From IMG/VR virus record IMGVR_UViG_2880361019_000008: DNA of 55,074 nucleotides; one strand, written 5' to 3'. Below are positions 25,816 to 47,696 of this stretch, in pieces. The translations under genes and the position numbers were made by a program. The stretch's first letter is position 1. Each line of letters begins with the position of its first letter. Origin of the DNA: a virus (Duplodnaviria; Heunggongvirae; Uroviricota; Caudoviricetes). The notes under the pieces are model-generated. The model saw only the letters and a program-made list of their open reading frames with translations, did not search any database and was not told where the DNA came from.

Positions 25816-27180
25816 ATGTGGAACTTTTTGCGACGAACCCGAAAAAACCAGAAATCAGGACGTGATGTAAAAGAGGTGGGCTGGACCAGCCTGTTTCAGG
25901 CGGTGGCTGAGCCCTTTGCCGGCGCCTGGCAGCAGGGTGTGAAAGCCGATCCGGAAAGTGTCCTCTCCTTTCATGCGGTGTTTTCTTGCATTTCGCTGAT
26001 ATCCCAGGATATCGCCAAAATGCGGCTGCGCCTGATGCAGACGGATACACAGGGGATCCGCCGTGAAAAACGGCAGGGGGATATTGCCCGCCTCTGTCGT
26101 CGTCCCAATGCACAGCAGAATCGTATCCAGTTTTTTGAACTGTGGCTGAACGCCAAACTGCGTCACGGCAATACGGTGGTGCTGAAAATCCGTAACTCCC
26201 GGGGGCAGATCAAAGAACTGCGTATTCTGGACTGGAGCCGGGTTGAACCTCTGGTGGCGGATGACGGCGAGGTGTTCTATCGCATCACGCCGGACCGGAA
26301 CTGCGGGATCACGGAGGCGGTGACGGTGCCTGCCCGGGAAGTGATCCACGACCGGTTTAACTGTTTTTTTCATCCGCTTGTGGGGCTGCCGCCGGTGTAT
26401 GCCGCCGGGCTGGCGGCCACGCAGGGGCATCATATTCAGGAAAATTCGACGTCTTTTTTCAGAAATGGCGGCAGGCCGTCCGGGGTGATTGAGATCCCCG
26501 GCAGTATTACGGAAGAAAAGGCGAAAAAACTGAAGAGCAACTGGGACAGCGGGTATACCGGCGAAAATGCGGGGAAAACGGCCATTCTGAGCAACGGGGC
26601 AAAATACAACCCCACGACGTTTTCACCGGTGGATGCGCAGACGGTGGAACAACTGAAGATGACCGCTGAAATTGTCTGTTCGGTGTTCCGTGTCCCGGCC
26701 TACAAGATTGGCGTTGGCCAGCCACCTTCCAGTGACAACGTGGAGGCGCTGGAGCAGCAGTATTATTCCCAGTGCCTGCAGACGCTGATTGAGTCCATTG
26801 AACTGTTACTGGATGAGGCGCTGGAAACGGGGGAAAACGAGAGTACGGAGTTTGACGTCACCACGCTGCTGAGAATGGACAGCGAACGGCGCATGAAAAC
26901 GCTGGGTGAGTCGGTGAAAAATACGCTTCTCACGCCCAATGAGGCCCGTAAACGTGAGAACCTGCCGCCCCTGGCCGGCGGTGATGCACTGTATCTTCAG
27001 CAGCAGAACTACAGTCTGGAGGCGCTGTCCCGTCGTGATGCCCGTGAAGATCCGTTTGCGTCGTCCGGGAAAAGAGTTTCAGCCCAACTGCCTGACGGCG
27101 CATCTGACGGTAATAAGGCAATCAGTGAAACAGAGCATGGTGCGGTGAAAGCGATGTTGAGGGGGATACTGCGAAAATGA
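25816..27180 (+). CDS. Portal protein (HK97 family)
   Basis: 454-aa ORF in head module; called by size and context. Confidence 0.7.
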   Translation: MWNFLRRTRKNQKSGRDVKEVGWTSLFQAVAEPFAGAWQQGVKADPESVLSFHAVFSCISLISQDIAKMRLRLMQTDTQGIRREKRQGDIARLCRRPNAQQNRIQFFELWLNAKLRHGNTVVLKIRNSRGQIKELRILDWSRVEPLVADDGEVFYRITPDRNCGITEAVTVPAREVIHDRFNCFFHPLVGLPPVYAAGLAATQGHHIQENSTSFFRNGGRPSGVIEIPGSITEEKAKKLKSNWDSGYTGENAGKTAILSNGAKYNPTTFSPVDAQTVEQLKMTAEIVCSVFRVPAYKIGVGQPPSSDNVEALEQQYYSQCLQTLIESIELLLDEALETGENESTEFDVTTLLRMDSERRMKTLGESVKNTLLTPNEARKRENLPPLAGGDALYLQQQNYSLEALSRRDAREDPFASSGKRVSAQLPDGASDGNKAISETEHGAVKAMLRGILRK

Positions 27181-28400
27181 CGGAACGGGAACTGTCCATT
27201 ATTCGTGCACTGGGAGAAGAATTCGCCACGGTGCTGGCGGATTTACAGCGCACATTTGAGGAGAAGATGGCCGCGCAGGCACAAGCGTTTGAAGAGAAAC
27301 TGGCTTCCCTGTCGGCGGTATTACAGAAGCATGTGACGGTGGATGAGGTACATCCGGTTCTGCAGGCGATGGTGGATGACGCTGTGGGGACCATTCCGGT
27401 ACCGCGTGATGGTCGTGATTATGATCCGGATGTACTGCAGCAGGCGGTGAATGATGCGGTTGCGAATATTCCGGTACCGGCGGACGGCAAAAGTATCACC
27501 CCCGATGATGTGCGTCCGATGCTTGAGCAGATGGTGAAAGAGGCCGTAAGCCATATCCCTGTTCCCCGCGATGGTCGTGATTACGATCCGGAAGTACTGA
27601 AGCAGGTGGTGAATGATGCTGTCGGGAGCATTCCTGTACCAGCAGACGGCAAAAGTATCACCCCCGATGATGTGCGTCCGATGCTTGAGCAGATGGTGAA
27701 AGAGGCGGTAAGCCATATTCCTGTTCCGCGTGATGGTCGTGACTACGATCCGGAAGTACTGAAGCAGGCGGTGAATGATGCGGTCGCGAAAATACCGGTG
27801 CCGGCAGACGGTAAAAGTATCACCCCGGATGATGTGCGTCCGATGCTTGAGCAGATGGTGAAGGAGGCGGTAAGCCATATTCCTGTTCCGAGCGACGGTC
27901 GTGACTATGATCCCGATGTTCTGCAGAAGGCGGTTCTGGATGCGGTGAGTGCCCTGCCGGCTCCGCAGGACGGGCGTGATGCTACGGCACTGGAAATACT
28001 CCCCGCCATTGACGATCAAAAATCCTTTCCCCGGGGCACGTATGCCACACACCAGGGCGGACTCTGGCGGGCGTATGAAAAAACGCACGGGATGCGGGGA
28101 TGGGAATGTCTGGTTGACGGGGTGGCGGATATTGACGTCAGCATGACGGGTGAACGGTTGTTCTCTGTGGTGGTCCGGCAGAGCAGTGGCCAGCGTACGG
28201 AAAAAACATTTTCCCTGCCGGTGATGCTCTACCGCGGTGTGTTCAGAGCCGGTGAAACCTACCACCCAGGCGATACAGTGACATGGGGGGGCTCGCTGTG
28301 GCACTGCAACAGTATGACCGGTGATAAACCCGGAGAAGCTCATTCATCAGCCTGGACCCTGGCTGCAAAACGTGGACGGGATGCTGGAGGCGGAAAATGA
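27177..28400 (+). CDS. Virion-associated protein with 47-aa tandem repeats (possible head decoration or fibre protein)
   Basis: Repeat unit IPVPRDGRDYDPEVLKQAVNDAV..IPVPADGKSITPDDVRPMLEQMVKEAVSH, about 3.5 copies. Confidence 0.55.
   Translation: MTERELSIIRALGEEFATVLADLQRTFEEKMAAQAQAFEEKLASLSAVLQKHVTVDEVHPVLQAMVDDAVGTIPVPRDGRDYDPDVLQQAVNDAVANIPVPADGKSITPDDVRPMLEQMVKEAVSHIPVPRDGRDYDPEVLKQVVNDAVGSIPVPADGKSITPDDVRPMLEQMVKEAVSHIPVPRDGRDYDPEVLKQAVNDAVAKIPVPADGKSITPDDVRPMLEQMVKEAVSHIPVPSDGRDYDPDVLQKAVLDAVSALPAPQDGRDATALEILPAIDDQKSFPRGTYATHQGGLWRAYEKTHGMRGWECLVDGVADIDVSMTGERLFSVVVRQSSGQRTEKTFSLPVMLYRGVFRAGETYHPGDTVTWGGSLWHCNSMTGDKPGEAHSSAWTLAAKRGRDAGGGK
27390..27960. repeat. Tandem 141-bp coding repeats (about 3.5 copies)
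   Basis: Near-identical DNA blocks visible between 27400 and 27900. Confidence 0.7.
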
Positions 28401-29527: not shown

Positions 29528-29868
29528 CGGAGGCGGATTTGTATCCTTATCTGGCGCATCTTGCCGGCGGGCAGGTGTACCCGTATGTGGTCCCCCTGCT
29601 GGATGGCAGGCCGTCGGTGGCGCTTCCGTGGGTGGTTTTCAGCCTGATTTCATCGGTGTCGGCGGACGTGATGGGCGGGCAGGCGGAGTCCTCAGTGTCG
29701 GTGCAGATAGACGTTTATGCCGGGACTGTGACGCAGGCGCGTCAGATACGTCAGGACGCCCGTGAAGCCATAATGCTGCTGGCCCCGGGATCCGTCAGTG
29801 AAATGCAGGACTATATTCCGGAAAACCGCTGTTACCGTGCAACCCTGGAGTTTCAGGTCACGGTGTGA
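29524..29868 (+). CDS. Tail completion/terminator-like protein
   Basis: 114-aa ORF, position. Confidence 0.5.
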   Translation: MTEADLYPYLAHLAGGQVYPYVVPLLDGRPSVALPWVVFSLISSVSADVMGGQAESSVSVQIDVYAGTVTQARQIRQDAREAIMLLAPGSVSEMQDYIPENRCYRATLEFQVTV

Positions 29869-29896
29869 CTTTTTCTTTTTTCTACAAAACCCATAC

Positions 29897-29917
29897 CCCG
29901 CCGCGTGCGGGTTTTTT
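29897..29917 (+). terminator. Terminator-like hairpin upstream of the major tail gene
   Basis: CCCGC-CGCGT-GCGGG followed by T6. Confidence 0.4.
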
Positions 29918-29933
29918 ATTATCAGGAGGCAGA

Positions 29934-30650
29934 ATGTCTGCTTTGTATGAACGCTCACAGCTGACGCAGGTGATGATTTCATCTGCCCCGGCGACGGCTG
30001 AAACTATGGATAAGGCGGAATATCTGCGCCTGGACTGCACCATCAAGGAAGTGCAGTTCACCGCCGGGCAGAAACAGGATATTGATGTGACCACGCTCTG
30101 CTCCACAGAGCAGGAGAACATCAACGGTCTGGGGGCGTCGTCCGAGATTTCCATGTCGGGTAATTTTTATCTGAATCAGGCCCAGAGCGCCCTGCGTGAT
30201 GCCTATGACAATGACACGGTGTATGCGTTTAAGGTGCAGTTTCCGTCCGGTAAGGGCTTTAAGTTCCTGGCGGAAGTGCGTCAGCACACCTGGTCATCCG
30301 GTACCAACGGCGTGGTGGCTGCAACGTTTTCACTTCGCCTGAAGGGTAAACCGGTGTCCTATGTGGTACCGCTGGCGTTTGTGAAAAATCTGGATAAGAC
30401 ACTTACCGTGAATACCGGTGCGCTGCTGACAATGTCAGTCAGTGTCAACGGGGGAACGCCGCCTTATAAACACGCCTGGAAGAAGGATGGTCAGCCGGTA
30501 GAGGGACAGACTACTGACACTTTCAGTAAAGCCAATACGCAGTCAGGTGATAAGGGGGCTTATACCTGCGAGGTAACGGATTCTGCAGAACAGCCGCAGA
30601 GCATTACCTCTGATGCGTGTACAGTAACGGTTAATGGTGCGGGCGGATAA
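29934..30650 (+). CDS. Major tail protein with C-terminal Ig-like domain
   Basis: ATG preceded by AGGAGG; C-terminal Ig-like segment (..GAYTCEVTDSAEQPQSITSDACTVTV). Confidence 0.7.
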   Translation: MSALYERSQLTQVMISSAPATAETMDKAEYLRLDCTIKEVQFTAGQKQDIDVTTLCSTEQENINGLGASSEISMSGNFYLNQAQSALRDAYDNDTVYAFKVQFPSGKGFKFLAEVRQHTWSSGTNGVVAATFSLRLKGKPVSYVVPLAFVKNLDKTLTVNTGALLTMSVSVNGGTPPYKHAWKKDGQPVEGQTTDTFSKANTQSGDKGAYTCEVTDSAEQPQSITSDACTVTVNGAGG

Positions 30651-30655
30651 GGCTT

Positions 30656-31030
30656 ATGGCAAAAGATCTGAAAACACTGGCGCTGGCCAGACTGTCGGGG
30701 TTCCGTCATAAAACGGTGAAGGTGCCGGAATGGGGAAATGTCAGCGTGGTGCTGCGGGAGCCTTCGGCAGAGGCCTGGTATCTGTGGCAGGAAGTGCTCA
30801 ATGGTGATGGAGAGGATGACGATACCCTGTCGGTGGTGGCGAAAACCCGCCGTAACCTGGAAGCGGATGTGACGCTGTTCTGCGATGTCCTGTGTGATAC
30901 GGACCTGCAACGGGTGTTCACTCCGGACGACCGTGAGCAGGTGCTGGCCGTCTATGGTCCGGTACATGCCCGGTTGCTGCGTCAGGCACTGGAACTGATC
31001 GCTGATGCAGAGTCGGCCAGAAAAAAGTAG
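30656..31030 (+). CDS. G: Tail assembly chaperone (lambda G analogue)
   Basis: 124-aa ORF ending at slippery heptamer A_AAA_AAG. Confidence 0.7.
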   Translation: MAKDLKTLALARLSGFRHKTVKVPEWGNVSVVLREPSAEAWYLWQEVLNGDGEDDDTLSVVAKTRRNLEADVTLFCDVLCDTDLQRVFTPDDREQVLAVYGPVHARLLRQALELIADAESARKK

Positions 31031-31335
31031 CCCGCCCGGAAATTCGCTTTCTGATGCGACTTGCGCTCCGTCTGGGGCGCACCTTATCCGAACTGCGCCA
31101 CAGCCTGAGTGCGAGCGAGGCGATGATGTGGATGGAGTTCGACAGGGTATCCCCGCTGGGTGATGAGCGCGGGGATATCCGTAATGCACAGATCGTGAAA
31201 GCGGTTTTCGGGGCACAGGGGATGAATGTTGCACTGAAGGACGCCATGCTCTGCTGGGGCGAGGATGAGGACAAGCCGGAGGTGGATCCGTTTGCGGCGC
31301 TGGAAGATGCGCTGAGCCTTGCAGCAATGTCATAA
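30656..31335 (+). CDS. Tail assembly chaperone G-T fusion (product of -1 frameshift)
   Basis: -1 frame after 31021-31027 reads KKVARPEIRFLMRLALRLG.. continuous with the 31054..31335 ORF. Confidence 0.6.
31021..31027 (+). promoter_or_regulatory. Programmed -1 ribosomal frameshift slippery site A_AAA_AAG
   Basis: Heptamer in G frame 3 nt before G stop; -1 frame is open into the T-like ORF. Confidence 0.6.
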
Positions 31336-31385
31336 ATAATGATGAAAACCTGCTGTGGCAGTTTTTTTTGCCCGGAGAAAGGTGA

Positions 31386-34300
31386 ATGGCGACGTTACGT
31401 GAACTGATTATCAAAATTTCGGCAAATTCGCAGTCATTCCAGTCGGAGATCCAGCGGGCTTCCCGTATGGGCAGTGAATATTACCGGACCCTGCAGAATG
31501 GCGGGCGTCAGGCCGCTGCGGCAGCCCGGGAGCAGCGACGTGCCCTGGCAGAACTGAACAGCCAGTTGACGGAAATTCGCGGTTCTGCTGTCGGAATGGC
31601 TGGCGCATTTGCCGGTGCCTTTGCCACCGGACACCTGATTTCACTGGCTGATGAGTGGAGTTCCGTGAATGCCCGTCTGAAACAGGCATCACAGTCATCC
31701 GATGAATTTTCGTCATCACAGAAAGTGCTGATGGATATCAGCCAGCGGACAGGCACGGCATTTTCGGATAATGCGGCCCTGTTTGCCCGTTCGGCTGCCT
31801 CGATGCGTGAATATGGTTACAGTGCTGATGATGTGCTGAAGGTGACGGAGGCCATTTCCACGGGGCTGAAAATCTCCGGTGCCAGTACGGCTGAGGCGGG
31901 TTCGGTGATCACCCAGTTCAGCCAGGCGCTGGCACAGGGTGTGTTGCGCGGTGAGGAATTTAATTCGGTCAATGAAAGTGGTGACCGGATCATTCGTGCA
32001 CTGGCTGCAGGCATGGGCGTGGCCCGTAAAGATCTGAAGGCGATGGCGGACGACGGCAAACTGACGGCGGATAAAGTCGTGCCCGCGTTAATCAGCCAGC
32101 TGGGGACATTGCGTGATGAATATGCCGCCATGCCAGAAACGGTCTCTGACGGGATCACAAAGGTGGAAAACGCCTTTATGGCCTGGGTGGGTGGTGCGAA
32201 TGAGGCCAGCGGGGTGACGAAAACGCTCTCCGGCGTGCTGAACGGTGTTGCCGGACAGATTGATAATGTGGCAACAGCCGTGGGGGCACTGGTTGCCGTC
32301 GGGGTTGCCCGGTACTTTGGCAATATGGCCTCCGGAGCGATGTCTGCCACGGCAGGACTTGTGACGGCTGCACGTAATGAAGTTGCACTGGCGGAAGCAC
32401 AGTTCAGGGGAACGCAGATTGCCACGGCGCGGGCAAGAGCAGCCGTGTACCGTGCTCAGCAGGCCGTGGCGGCAGCCCGCGGGACGGAGATGCAGATTGC
32501 AGCAGAGGCCCGTCTGGCGGCCACACAGGAACGCCTGAACAGAAATATTGCTGCCAGAACCGCCGCCCAGAATGCGCTGAACAGTACAACGGCGGTGGGC
32601 TCACGTCTGATGAGCGGTGCGCTGGGACTGGTTGGAGGCGTACCCGGACTGGTGATGCTGGGAGCTGCCGCATGGTACACGCTGTACCAGAATCAGGAAC
32701 AGGCCAGGGAGTCTGCGCGCCAGTATGCACTGACGATAGATGAAATCGCGCATAAAACGCCATCAATGTCTCTGCCTGAAGCCTCAGATAACGAAGGGCG
32801 AACACGGGAGGCGCTGACAGAGCAAAACCGGCTGATTGATGAGCAGGCCAGCCGGGTGAAATCCCTGCAGGAAAAAATCGCCGGGTATCAGTATGTGCTG
32901 GCTAATCCGGGCTGGACGACCGGTAACGGCTTCATGATAAACCATCAGACATCGGTGAAAACTGTAACGGAAGAGCTTGCTCAGGCAACAGAGCAGCTTG
33001 CCGTTGAGCAGTCCCGTCTGGCACAGATGCAGGAAAAAGCGCAGTCCATTCAGGATGTGCTTGCCGGGCTGGAAGACCGTCGTGTGGCGTTAATTCGTCA
33101 GCAGGCGGCAGAGCAGAATAAGGTGTACCAGTCCATGCTGGTTATGAACGGTCAGCATACGGAATTCAACCGTCTGCTGGGGCTGGGGAATGAACTGCTT
33201 CAGCAGCGGCAGGGACTGGTGAATGTGCCGTTACGGCTGCCACAGGCCACTCAGGATGATAAACAGCAGAGTGCCCTGACAAAAACAGAGCGTGAGCTGG
33301 CCCTGTCCAGACTGAAAGGGGAAGAAAAAGAGCGTGTCCGACTGGGGTATGCGGCGGATGACCTCGGTTTTGTGGGTGATCCGTATCAGGAGGCGAGACA
33401 ACGTTATATCAGTAATGCCCTGGAAGCCTGGCGCAATAACGAGGCGAATAAACCCAAATCCCGGGGTGGAAAATCAGAGACGGAAAAAGCGGAAGACAGT
33501 TTTTCCCGGCTGCTGAAGCAGCAGAAAGAGCAACTGGCACTGGCCGGTCAGAACACGGAGCTGGCGAAGCTGAAGTACCAGACAGCGCTGGGTGAACTGA
33601 AAACCCTGTCGGAGATACAGAAGCAGGAGCTGCTGCGTAACGCGGCCCTGATTGACCAGCAAAAAATCCGGGAACAGTTGCGATCCCGGGAAGAGACCCT
33701 GAAGAATGATAATGTGGCTGCGTGTGCATCAAATGAAGCCGAACTGCTGGGGTACGGGCAGGGAGAACGAGCCAGGGAACGCATGCGGGAGTTGCAGCAG
33801 ATCCGCGACAGCTTCCGCCAGAAGGATGCGGACCTTCAGTCTCAGTATCAGACCGGGGATATCAGTGAGGATTTTTACAGACAGGCGCTGGCGCAGAATG
33901 CACAGTATCTGAGTGAACGTCTGAAAGAGCAGGAAGCCTTTTATGCCGAATCGGATGTGCAGCGTGCGGACTGGCAGAAAGGGCTGCTGGAGGGATTCAG
34001 TAACTGGGTGGATAATGCGTCCGATTACGCCTCACAGGCAGCACAGCTTGCGACGGAGGGGATCTCAGGGATGGTGAATAACATCACGGAGATGCTGAAC
34101 GGAAATAAAGTGGAATGGCGCAGCTGGGCCTCATCAGTGCTGCAGGAAATATCAAAAGTTCTTATGAATGCCGCGATTGTCAACGGAATTAAGACGGCGG
34201 CAAACGGTATGTCCGGTGCGGGAGGATTTCTCGGCAGCATTGGTGACTGGCTGGGCGGGGCGGTGGCCAATGCAAAAGGCGGCGTGTATACCTCGGCAAA

Positions 34301-34628
34301 CCTGAGTGCGTACAGCAACAGTATTGTGGATACGCCCACGTACTTTGCCTTTGCAAAAGGGGCCGGGCTGATGGGGGAGGCCGGACCTGAAGCCATTATG
34401 CCTCTGACGCGGGCGGCGGATGGCTCGCTGGGTGTGCGCGCGGTGGGTAGTATGTACGGCAGTGCGGGTCTGGTGTATTCCCCGGTCTACCATATCGCCA
34501 TTCAGAATGACGGGACTAATGGCCAGATAGGGCCGGAGGCGGCAGGCAGCCTTGTGCAACTGATTGACCAGCGGGTGCAGGCGGTGATGCTGTCCATGCG
34601 ACGTGACGGAGGAATGCTGAGTGGCTGA
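31386..34628 (+). CDS. H: Tail tape measure protein
   Basis: 1080-aa largely helical ORF in canonical position. Confidence 0.85.
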   Translation: MATLRELIIKISANSQSFQSEIQRASRMGSEYYRTLQNGGRQAAAAAREQRRALAELNSQLTEIRGSAVGMAGAFAGAFATGHLISLADEWSSVNARLKQASQSSDEFSSSQKVLMDISQRTGTAFSDNAALFARSAASMREYGYSADDVLKVTEAISTGLKISGASTAEAGSVITQFSQALAQGVLRGEEFNSVNESGDRIIRALAAGMGVARKDLKAMADDGKLTADKVVPALISQLGTLRDEYAAMPETVSDGITKVENAFMAWVGGANEASGVTKTLSGVLNGVAGQIDNVATAVGALVAVGVARYFGNMASGAMSATAGLVTAARNEVALAEAQFRGTQIATARARAAVYRAQQAVAAARGTEMQIAAEARLAATQERLNRNIAARTAAQNALNSTTAVGSRLMSGALGLVGGVPGLVMLGAAAWYTLYQNQEQARESARQYALTIDEIAHKTPSMSLPEASDNEGRTREALTEQNRLIDEQASRVKSLQEKIAGYQYVLANPGWTTGNGFMINHQTSVKTVTEELAQATEQLAVEQSRLAQMQEKAQSIQDVLAGLEDRRVALIRQQAAEQNKVYQSMLVMNGQHTEFNRLLGLGNELLQQRQGLVNVPLRLPQATQDDKQQSALTKTERELALSRLKGEEKERVRLGYAADDLGFVGDPYQEARQRYISNALEAWRNNEANKPKSRGGKSETEKAEDSFSRLLKQQKEQLALAGQNTELAKLKYQTALGELKTLSEIQKQELLRNAALIDQQKIREQLRSREETLKNDNVAACASNEAELLGYGQGERARERMRELQQIRDSFRQKDADLQSQYQTGDISEDFYRQALAQNAQYLSERLKEQEAFYAESDVQRADWQKGLLEGFSNWVDNASDYASQAAQLATEGISGMVNNITEMLNGNKVEWRSWASSVLQEISKVLMNAAIVNGIKTAANGMSGAGGFLGSIGDWLGGAVANAKGGVYTSANLSAYSNSIVDTPTYFAFAKGAGLMGEAGPEAIMPLTRAADGSLGVRAVGSMYGSAGLVYSPVYHIAIQNDGTNGQIGPEAAGSLVQLIDQRVQAVMLSMRRDGGMLSG

Positions 34629-46382: not shown

Positions 46383-47696
46383 ATGGCAGTACGGATTTCA
46401 GGTGTACTGAAAGATGGTGCAGGTAAGCCGATACAAAACTGCACCATTCAGCTAAAGGCCAGGCGCAACAGCACCACGGTGGTGGTGAACACAGTGGCCT
46501 CAGAAAACCCGGATGAAGCCGGGAGTTACACAATGGACGTTGAGTACGGTCAGTACAGCGTCATTCTGTTGGTGGAGGGATTCCCGCCGTCACATGCCGG
46601 GACCATCACCGTGTATGAAGATTCTCAACCGGGGACGCTGAATGATTTTCTCGGTGCCATGTCGGAGGATGATGTCCGGCCGGAGGCACTGCGTCGTTTT
46701 GAACAGATGGTGGAAGAGGCAGCGCGTCACGCAGAGGAGGCGAAGAAGAATGCCGGAGAGGCGGAGACATCAGCGAGGAATGCCGGCATATCAGCCAGTC
46801 AGGCAGAAGAGAGCGCTGCAAATGCTGACACTTCAGCAGGGGATGCATCGGAGTCAGCCCGGCAGGCGGCAGAAAGTGCAGCCGCTGCAAAGCAGTCAGA
46901 GGAGGCGTCCTCGTCCTCGGCCTCTGCGGCCGCTCAAAAAGCCAGTGAGTCATCACAAAGTGCAGCAGATGCTGAATTGTCAAAAAAGACGGCAGAAAGT
47001 GCAGCCGGTAATGCAGCCAGGGATGCAACGACCGCAACAGAAAAAGCCCGGGAGTCAGCAGAAAGCGCACAGTCAGCGGAACAAAGCAGGATAGCGGCGG
47101 AAGAAGCCGTAAACCGCATCCCCACAGTGGTGGGACCTCCCGGGCCAAAGGGGGAACCGGGTCCCGCGGGTCCTCAGGGGCCGAAGGGAGATAAAGGAGA
47201 GCGTGGCGACACCGGCCCGGCAGGGGCAACCGGTGAAAGGGGACCGGCAGGTGATGCTGGTCCGGCAGGCCCGCAGGGGCCGAAAGGTGACAGGGGAGAG
47301 CGGGGAGAGACCGGTCTGACGGGAAATGCAGGTCCACAGGGTCCAAAGGGAGATACCGGTGCGGCAGGCCCGGCAGGCCCACAGGGACCGAAAGGAGAAA
47401 CAGGTGCGGCTGGCCCGGTGGGGGCGACCGGACCTCAGGGGCCGAAGGGCGACCCGGGGGAGACGCAAATACGGTTCCGTCTGGGGCCGGGAAACATTAT
47501 TGAGACAAACAGCCATGGCTGGTTCCCGGATACAGATGGCGCACTCATCACCGGACTGACCTTTCTTGACCCCAAAGATGCCACACAGGTTCAGGGGATG
47601 TTTCAGCATTTGCAGGTCAGATTTGGTGACGGGCCGTGGCAGGATGTTAAGGGGCTGGATGAAGTGGGCAGTGATACAGGCAGAACAGGAGAATGA
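46383..47696 (+). CDS. stf: Side tail fibre protein with collagen-like Gly-X-Y repeats
   Basis: 437-aa ORF; Ala/Ser/Glu-rich helical region then about 40 G-X-Y triplets ([20 protein letters not shown]...). Confidence 0.75.

Follow-up and report, generated by a model that had tools for sequence, protein, structure and literature searches.

A probable programmed −1 ribosomal frameshift site, A_AAA_AAG, at the junction of the G and T tail chaperone frames in a lambdoid prophage of Escherichia coli

Genes and reading frames at the G/T junction

The window analysed here is the whole 55,074 nt stretch of DNA of the IMG/VR virus record IMGVR_UViG_2880361019_000008 (Caudoviricetes). Among E. coli prophages, the DNA matches long-tailed Stx and lambdoid ones at 99.0–99.5 % identity, BP-4795, Stx2-1717 and O157:H7 prophages among them. 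A G/T pair of overlapping reading frames lies between the major tail gene and the tape measure gene. By Pfam match, an HK97-gp10-like protein and a tail completion protein are encoded further upstream, and a lambda M-like minor tail protein is encoded beyond the tape measure gene. The features of the region are as follows.

29934–30650, + strand: major tail (tube) protein with a C-terminal Ig-like domain (Pfam Phage_tail_2, TTP and Ig_2); start as in RefSeq, with a strong Shine–Dalgarno (SD) sequence before 29934
30656–31030, + strand: G gene; standard decoding yields a tail assembly chaperone of 124 aa (PF06222; named 'phage tail assembly chaperone' in RefSeq relatives)
30656–31335, + strand: predicted GT fusion of 226 aa, join(30656..31027, 31027..31335), with base 31027 read twice; a reconstruction, together with a published reporter result on an identical cassette
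31021–31027, + strand: slippery heptamer A_AAA_AAG; 0-frame codons AAA AAG, the first A being the wobble base of an Arg codon, AGA
31027–31335, + strand: T segment, read in the −1 frame, 102 codons (VARPEIRFLMRLALRLGRTL...) plus TAA at 31333–31335; PF06223, T-frame periodicity, conserved Pro4 and Phe8
31028–31030, + strand: 0-frame TAG stop, whose T and A would enter the −1 frame Val codon GTA (31027–31029) after the slip
31054–31056, + strand: ATG from which public records begin a free-standing T of 93 aa, as a separate CDS; 24 nt past the G stop
31386–34628, + strand: tape measure protein, 1080 aa (PF06120 Phage_HK97_TLTM, E = 3.8e-90; TMP_3; Tape_meas_lam_C)

Pfam assignments were judged by the curated gathering thresholds, and G and T both score above them. 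G matches PF06222 (Phage_TAC_1) over profile positions 1–124 of 124 (E = 1.7e-61; 206.1 bits, cutoff 25), and the −1 frame matches PF06223 (Phage_tail_T, lambda-type minor tail protein T) over positions 1–70 of 73 (E = 5.9e-19; 68.7 bits, cutoff 25.9).

The heptamer AAAAAAG is read at 31021–31027 on the + strand of the window and stands in the X_XXY_YYZ phase (A_AAA_AAG) relative to the G ORF, which confirms the initial observation of this motif. The final codons of G are GCC AGA AAA AAG TAG, with the TAG directly abutting the 3′ end of the heptamer. The preliminary description had placed the end of the G-like ORF three nucleotides past the heptamer, and this is right, those three nucleotides being the TAG stop itself. 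It had also described the −1 frame as open into a 93-aa T-like ORF at 31054–31335; the frame is indeed open throughout, from 31006 to the TAA stop at 31333–31335, with its first ATG at 31054 and a 25 nt overlap with G. A −1 slip on the heptamer is predicted to give a 226-aa fusion composed of 124 aa of G and 102 aa of the T frame.

In total, 28 copies of AAAAAAG occur on the two strands of the window, compared with 10.8 expected from shuffles. Among these, only the copy at 31021–31027 lies in phase just where a real ORF ends and is also followed by a long −1 continuation. At the seven in-phase positions of the 25 nt G/T overlap, ~0.002 copies of the heptamer would be expected by chance.

Two more in-phase copies of A_AAA_AAG are found within long genes. 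One, at 46982–46988, is located in the prophage tail fibre gene (46383–47696), where a −1 shift would end after 7 codons; the other, at 52848–52854, is located in a DUF4765 gene (51124–54525), where it would end after 4 codons. In both cases the product would be truncated. The DUF4765 protein is full-length, at 1133 aa, and is part of the prophage cargo 3′ of the tail fibre gene, as is a pentapeptide-repeat SopA-like HECT-type E3 ligase effector (NleL/SopA relative) at 48183–50531.

For the major tail gene, 29934 (the RefSeq start) is the most likely start, rather than GTG 29865 of the longest ORF, since a terminator-like hairpin (CCCGCCGCGTGCGGG followed by a T-run, 29897–29911) and then a strong AGGAGG SD sequence precede ATG 29934. 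An attenuating terminator may separate the major tail gene from the tail completion gene before it (29855–29936). A second hairpin, CTGC-TGTG-GCAG followed by T8, is located at 31350–31369, past the T stop and ahead of the tape measure gene. This hairpin was not flagged by the terminator scan, as its stem is only 4 bp; in the HK633 record a rho-independent terminator is annotated at the equivalent position. Further upstream, between the portal-like and head–tail connector genes, a 407-aa ORF (27177–28400) contains several tandem units of ~47 aa (IPVPRDGRDYDPEVLKQ.VNDAV..IPVPADGKSITPDDVRPMLEQMVKEAVSH), and a Pfam search of this ORF gave no family above threshold.

Conservation of the frame relation and the slip motif

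When the fusion protein was used as a tblastn query, matches were always returned as two pieces in different frames. In the annotated relatives, T is in the −1 frame relative to G in 13 of 13 cases, with a slip motif in the last G codons; the set spans E. coli phages (Evi, HK633, HK542, Fraca) and phages of Klebsiella, Cronobacter, Vibrio, Halomonas and Burkholderia. A wide survey of 160 further loci, with IMG/VR and a single genome for each species as sources, covered 92 distinct junctions and ~40 bacterial genera; the −1 relation of T to G holds in 87 of the 92, and the other 5 are 1 nt indels. Some loci appeared at first to have T in the '+1' frame or to have 'no G'. Other architecture as an explanation for these was rejected on homology re-analysis, which resolved them into 3 normal −1 junctions and the 5 indels.

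A_AAA_AAG is the commonest motif at the homologous position, being present in 49 of the 89 distinct junctions that were classified. The remaining motifs are G_GAA_AAG, x_GCA_AAG, G_GGA_AAG, A_AAA_AAC (mainly in Halomonas relatives) and A_AAA_AAA. Longer A runs are found in some relatives, with A8 in Evi-like phages and A9 in a Halomonas phage. A stop codon (TAG or TAA) is located directly 3′ of A_AAA_AAG in 42 of 55 distinct junctions, as it is here. The survey provides a clean picture of the slip motifs tolerated by one family at a single homologous position. It also bears out the preliminary description, which had recognized the conserved G/GT arrangement of long-tailed phages: the 87 of 92 −1 junctions, the PF06222 and PF06223 matches and the gene order all agree with it, and a slip motif occupies the homologous position across the family, where homologues lacking one had been named among the observations that would count against the site.

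No N_AAA_AAG motif with N other than A was seen among the surveyed junctions, though six residues (E, K, R, A, Q and G) occur at the codon before it. As the residue varies and yet the codon (31019–31021 in the window) always ends in A, the constancy of this A, with which the heptamer begins, suggests that selection acts on the nucleotide and not on the amino acid. The codon that supplies this A in the window, the Arg codon AGA, is a rare codon in E. coli.

The five exceptional junctions each differ by a single nucleotide. Two Evi-like IMG/VR contigs (L070 and L079; ~1190–1205) have A7 in place of A8, and Serratia sp. L9 (L154; ~1190–1200) has A6 in place of A7; in these three, one A has been lost and T is in the +1 frame. 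Conversely, one A has been gained in Candidatus Symbiopectobacterium endolongispinus, a degenerating symbiont (L104; ~1190–1205), giving A9 and a G and T fused in frame. In a Leclercia copy (L100; ~1134–1175) the indel is inside G. Real homopolymer mutations, prophage decay and sequencing errors are all possible sources of these indels.

Published tests, sequence context and related signals

The site is already known. The HK97-type Phage_TAC_1 cluster (GeneTack 862991913 'Phage_TAC', Antonov et al. 2013; A_AAA_AAG_25/ECs1801, Sharma et al. 2014) is the same thing, with the same heptamer, abutting TAG and Pfam families, and there is no substantive difference from it; the window is another genomic copy. 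A frameshift cluster of 41 members, labelled 'phage tail assembly chaperone' and related to HK97, was predicted by Antonov et al. (2013), who assayed two cassettes in an E. coli GST-MBP reporter (PMC3711429). The 75 nt insert of the Phage_TAC cassette (Table S2, fs-gene 15618692), which is identical to window 31001–31075 at 75 of 75 nt, gave 7 % ± 0.79 frameshifting (PMC3711429) in this heterologous reporter of 75 nt plus flanks, an assay which alone cannot tell ribosomal from transcriptional slippage. The second cassette, of the G_GGA_AAG type as in HK542 and Fraca, gave 6 % (PMC3711429). Likewise, the prophage cluster A_AAA_AAG_25 of Sharma et al. (2014), with 53 genes and represented by ECs1801, is listed as 'tail assembly chaperone; [true]' (PMC4066793, Table S4). 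The G/GT frameshift of long-tailed phages is textbook biology, and an efficiency is published for the exact cassette, so nothing new on mechanism is offered here.

The surroundings of the heptamer were compared with dnaX-type criteria, namely an SD-like element ~10 nt upstream and a stable stem loop 5–9 nt downstream, with ~50 % shifting. No SD-like stimulator was found upstream, the best anti-SD duplex 6–17 nt upstream having −2.4 kcal/mol, weaker than the background mean of −3.45 within G. Downstream, the fold of 50 nt is no better than that of shuffles; its z-score is −0.34 in the window and ranges from −0.7 to +1.3 in 33 relatives. A longer, 93 nt fold gave z = −1.8. A conserved stimulatory structure downstream was rejected on the basis of the 50 nt shuffle z-scores in the window and in diverse relatives. 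These null results agree with the scores for cluster A_AAA_AAG_25, for which SD = N and the hairpin is no more stable than average (ΔΔG 0.020 ± 0.023; PMC4066793).

A possible 6 bp hairpin is formed by 31063–31080 (GCGCTCCGTCTGGGGCGC; GCGCUCC...GGGGCGC), 35 nt 3′ of the heptamer, and its nucleotides are nearly invariant in many relatives. It was considered as a stimulator and rejected: the segment encodes an invariant ALRLGR, and relatives with other codons (e.g. locus L111) break the pairing. The nucleotide conservation at this position is thus accounted for by protein constraint.

The only conserved context feature around the heptamer is the abutting stop. One tentative suggestion, which fits the data but which we consider rather unlikely, is that this stop is selected as the only stimulator (a 'shifty stop') tuning G:GT at ~7 %, and that the A run is an indel hotspot which switches prophage copies between states. 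Such states may comprise the normal one, a GT-only one (the gain of one A in L104) and a T-disconnected one (the loss of one A in L070, L079 and L154). Equally, the conserved T-frame Val codon could account for the abutting stop as a by-product, and sequencing errors or mere decay for the A-run indels.

Three other systems invite comparison. At E. coli dnaX (gamma/tau) the heptamer is an identical A_AAA_AAG, the AAG is read by the same shift-prone tRNA-Lys and the shift is likewise −1. However, dnaX has an upstream SD-like stimulator, a downstream stem loop, ~50 % shifting and a shorter product (PMC3711429), whereas at the G/T junction there is no SD-like element, no structure beyond that of shuffles, ~7 % shifting and a longer product. 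Of the earlier label 'dnaX-type slippery sequence', the heptamer part stands; the dnaX stimulators do not carry over, nor does the efficiency. In the IS3 family (IS911, IS2 and IS150), A_AAA_AAG near the end of orfA leads into orfB and a longer trans-frame fusion, as is likewise the case here. The IS3-family signals include a stem loop or a pseudoknot, and some of them (IS911, IS1397) have an SD-like stimulator as well; these elements have no counterpart at the G/T junction. The product of the IS signals is a transposase.

The third system is G/GT of phage lambda, whose T domain is homologous (PF06223). The only Pfam match of the G moiety here is PF06222, while lambda gpG belongs to PF06894. 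Lambda slips at G_GGA_AAG, whereas the site here is A_AAA_AAG with the stop directly adjacent and a measured 7 %. A further likeness is that no strong stimulator was found here, and in both systems a low efficiency would set the G:GT ratio. For lambda this ratio is given as ~30:1 in the summary of Levin et al. (1993) and Xu et al. (2004, 2013, 2014) provided in PMC5009743. In a review of the general G/GT mechanism and its conservation (PMC5009743), the binding partner of G, both free and within GT, is the tape measure protein, and that of the T domain is the major tail protein.

Expression of the T segment and alternative explanations

These observations are best explained if the heptamer at 31021–31027 serves a G/GT chaperone pair as its programmed −1 ribosomal frameshift site, in a lambdoid E. 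coli prophage of the HK97 type (Phage_TAC_1); we assign this reading a probability of about 0.93. A programmed −1 frameshift joining G and T at A_AAA_AAG had been proposed in the preliminary description and is supported, the identical cassette having shifted at 7 % in the E. coli GST-MBP reporter (PMC3711429).

Under this explanation, most ribosomes translating G would read AAA AAG, meet the TAG and release the 124-aa G. A minority (~7 %, if the value for the exact cassette in the reporter applies) would slip back by one base on A_AAA_AAG in a tandem slip, with the Lys tRNAs re-pairing with AAA AAA. Decoding would then restart at GTA (31027–31029) and continue for 102 codons to yield the 226-aa GT. 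The slip would be driven by the heptamer itself, possibly with help from the stop codon directly behind it. On the model of phage lambda, many G and few GT would coat the tape measure protein, the T domain would recruit the major tail protein, and a fixed low rate of slipping would set the G:GT ratio for tail assembly.

The result is of value mainly for annotation. The locus is present in 1246 of 5426 complete E. coli genomes, in at most 7 places per genome, and the slippage join is missing from the RefSeq and GenBank-derived records of the three relatives inspected: RefSeq NZ_CP017442.1 (PGAP) and the RefSeq phages BP-4795 and Stx2a_WGPS2. In all three, T is a separate 93-aa CDS (1955–2236 in L001, and likewise in L002 and L003, equivalent to window 31054–31335), the nine T-frame codons before its ATG are treated as non-coding and the 226-aa GT is absent.

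These annotations correspond to an alternative in which a free 93-aa T is made from its own ATG 31054, for example by termination–reinitiation after the G stop 24 nt upstream, the heptamer being incidental. An in-frame ATG is available, the residue at this position is Met in 77 of 78 junctions, and short-range reinitiation without an SD sequence is possible in bacteria. The 27 nt before the ATG, however, speak against it. Across 78 distinct ungapped junctions these nine codons show T-frame periodicity, with an entropy of 1.48 at third positions versus 0.82 at the first two, and the pattern is reversed in either of the other phases. Pro4 of the T segment is kept in 77 of the 78 junctions, with all four of its codons in use, and Phe8 in 78 of 78, which indicates purifying selection in the T frame on codons that cannot be translated from the ATG. 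No ATG, GTG or TTG is present in the T frame between 31006 and 31053. SD pairing before ATG 31054 is −3.5 kcal/mol, which is approximately background and the weakest of 7 neighbouring starts (the rest range from −5.8 to −10.3). An independent promoter or ribosome-binding site for T was rejected on this background-level pairing and on the lack of any promoter-like site for T.

Given selection in the T frame without a start codon or SD sequence, the nine conserved residues are, to judge from these alignments, reachable only from the G frame, i.e. by frameshifting, and ATG 31054 most likely encodes an internal residue, Met10 of the T segment. In Burkholderia phage KS9 this Met is replaced by Leu, and the KS9 record joins G and T. 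Additionally, the −1 relation and the slip motif are conserved across ~40 genera and the identical cassette frameshifts at 7 %. A free-standing T is thus very improbable as the main explanation, and a minor, low-level route to T by reinitiation is possible.

A second alternative retains the joining of G and T but moves it to the mRNA: RNA polymerase would add one A within the A6 run, so that the two frames are fused in some transcripts. The GST-MBP reporter measures protein and is blind to whether the shift took place at the mRNA or the ribosome, the genomic variant with one additional A (L104) fuses G and T in frame, and polymerase slippage is more plausible in those relatives whose runs reach A8 (Evi-like phages) or A9 (a Halomonas phage). 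The run in the window, however, is only A6, and programmed realignment has been reported for A runs with n > 7 (PMC3711429). The motifs G_GGA_AAG, G_GAA_AAG and GCA_AAG in relatives contain no homopolymer run and yet keep the shift-prone Lys AAG codon in the A site, as expected for tRNA slippage. Furthermore, the motif is always in X_XXY_YYZ phase, which is irrelevant to a polymerase. Transcriptional slippage is therefore hardly probable at all as the source of GT here, and ribosomal frameshifting is the reading retained.

The remaining alternative, a chance A-rich heptamer at a fortuitous overlap with no recoding, could appeal to the over-representation of AAAAAAG in the window, but it is already refuted by the published reporter data on the cassette and by conservation across genera, in addition to the ~0.002 expectation and the singular placement of this copy at an ORF end with a long −1 continuation.
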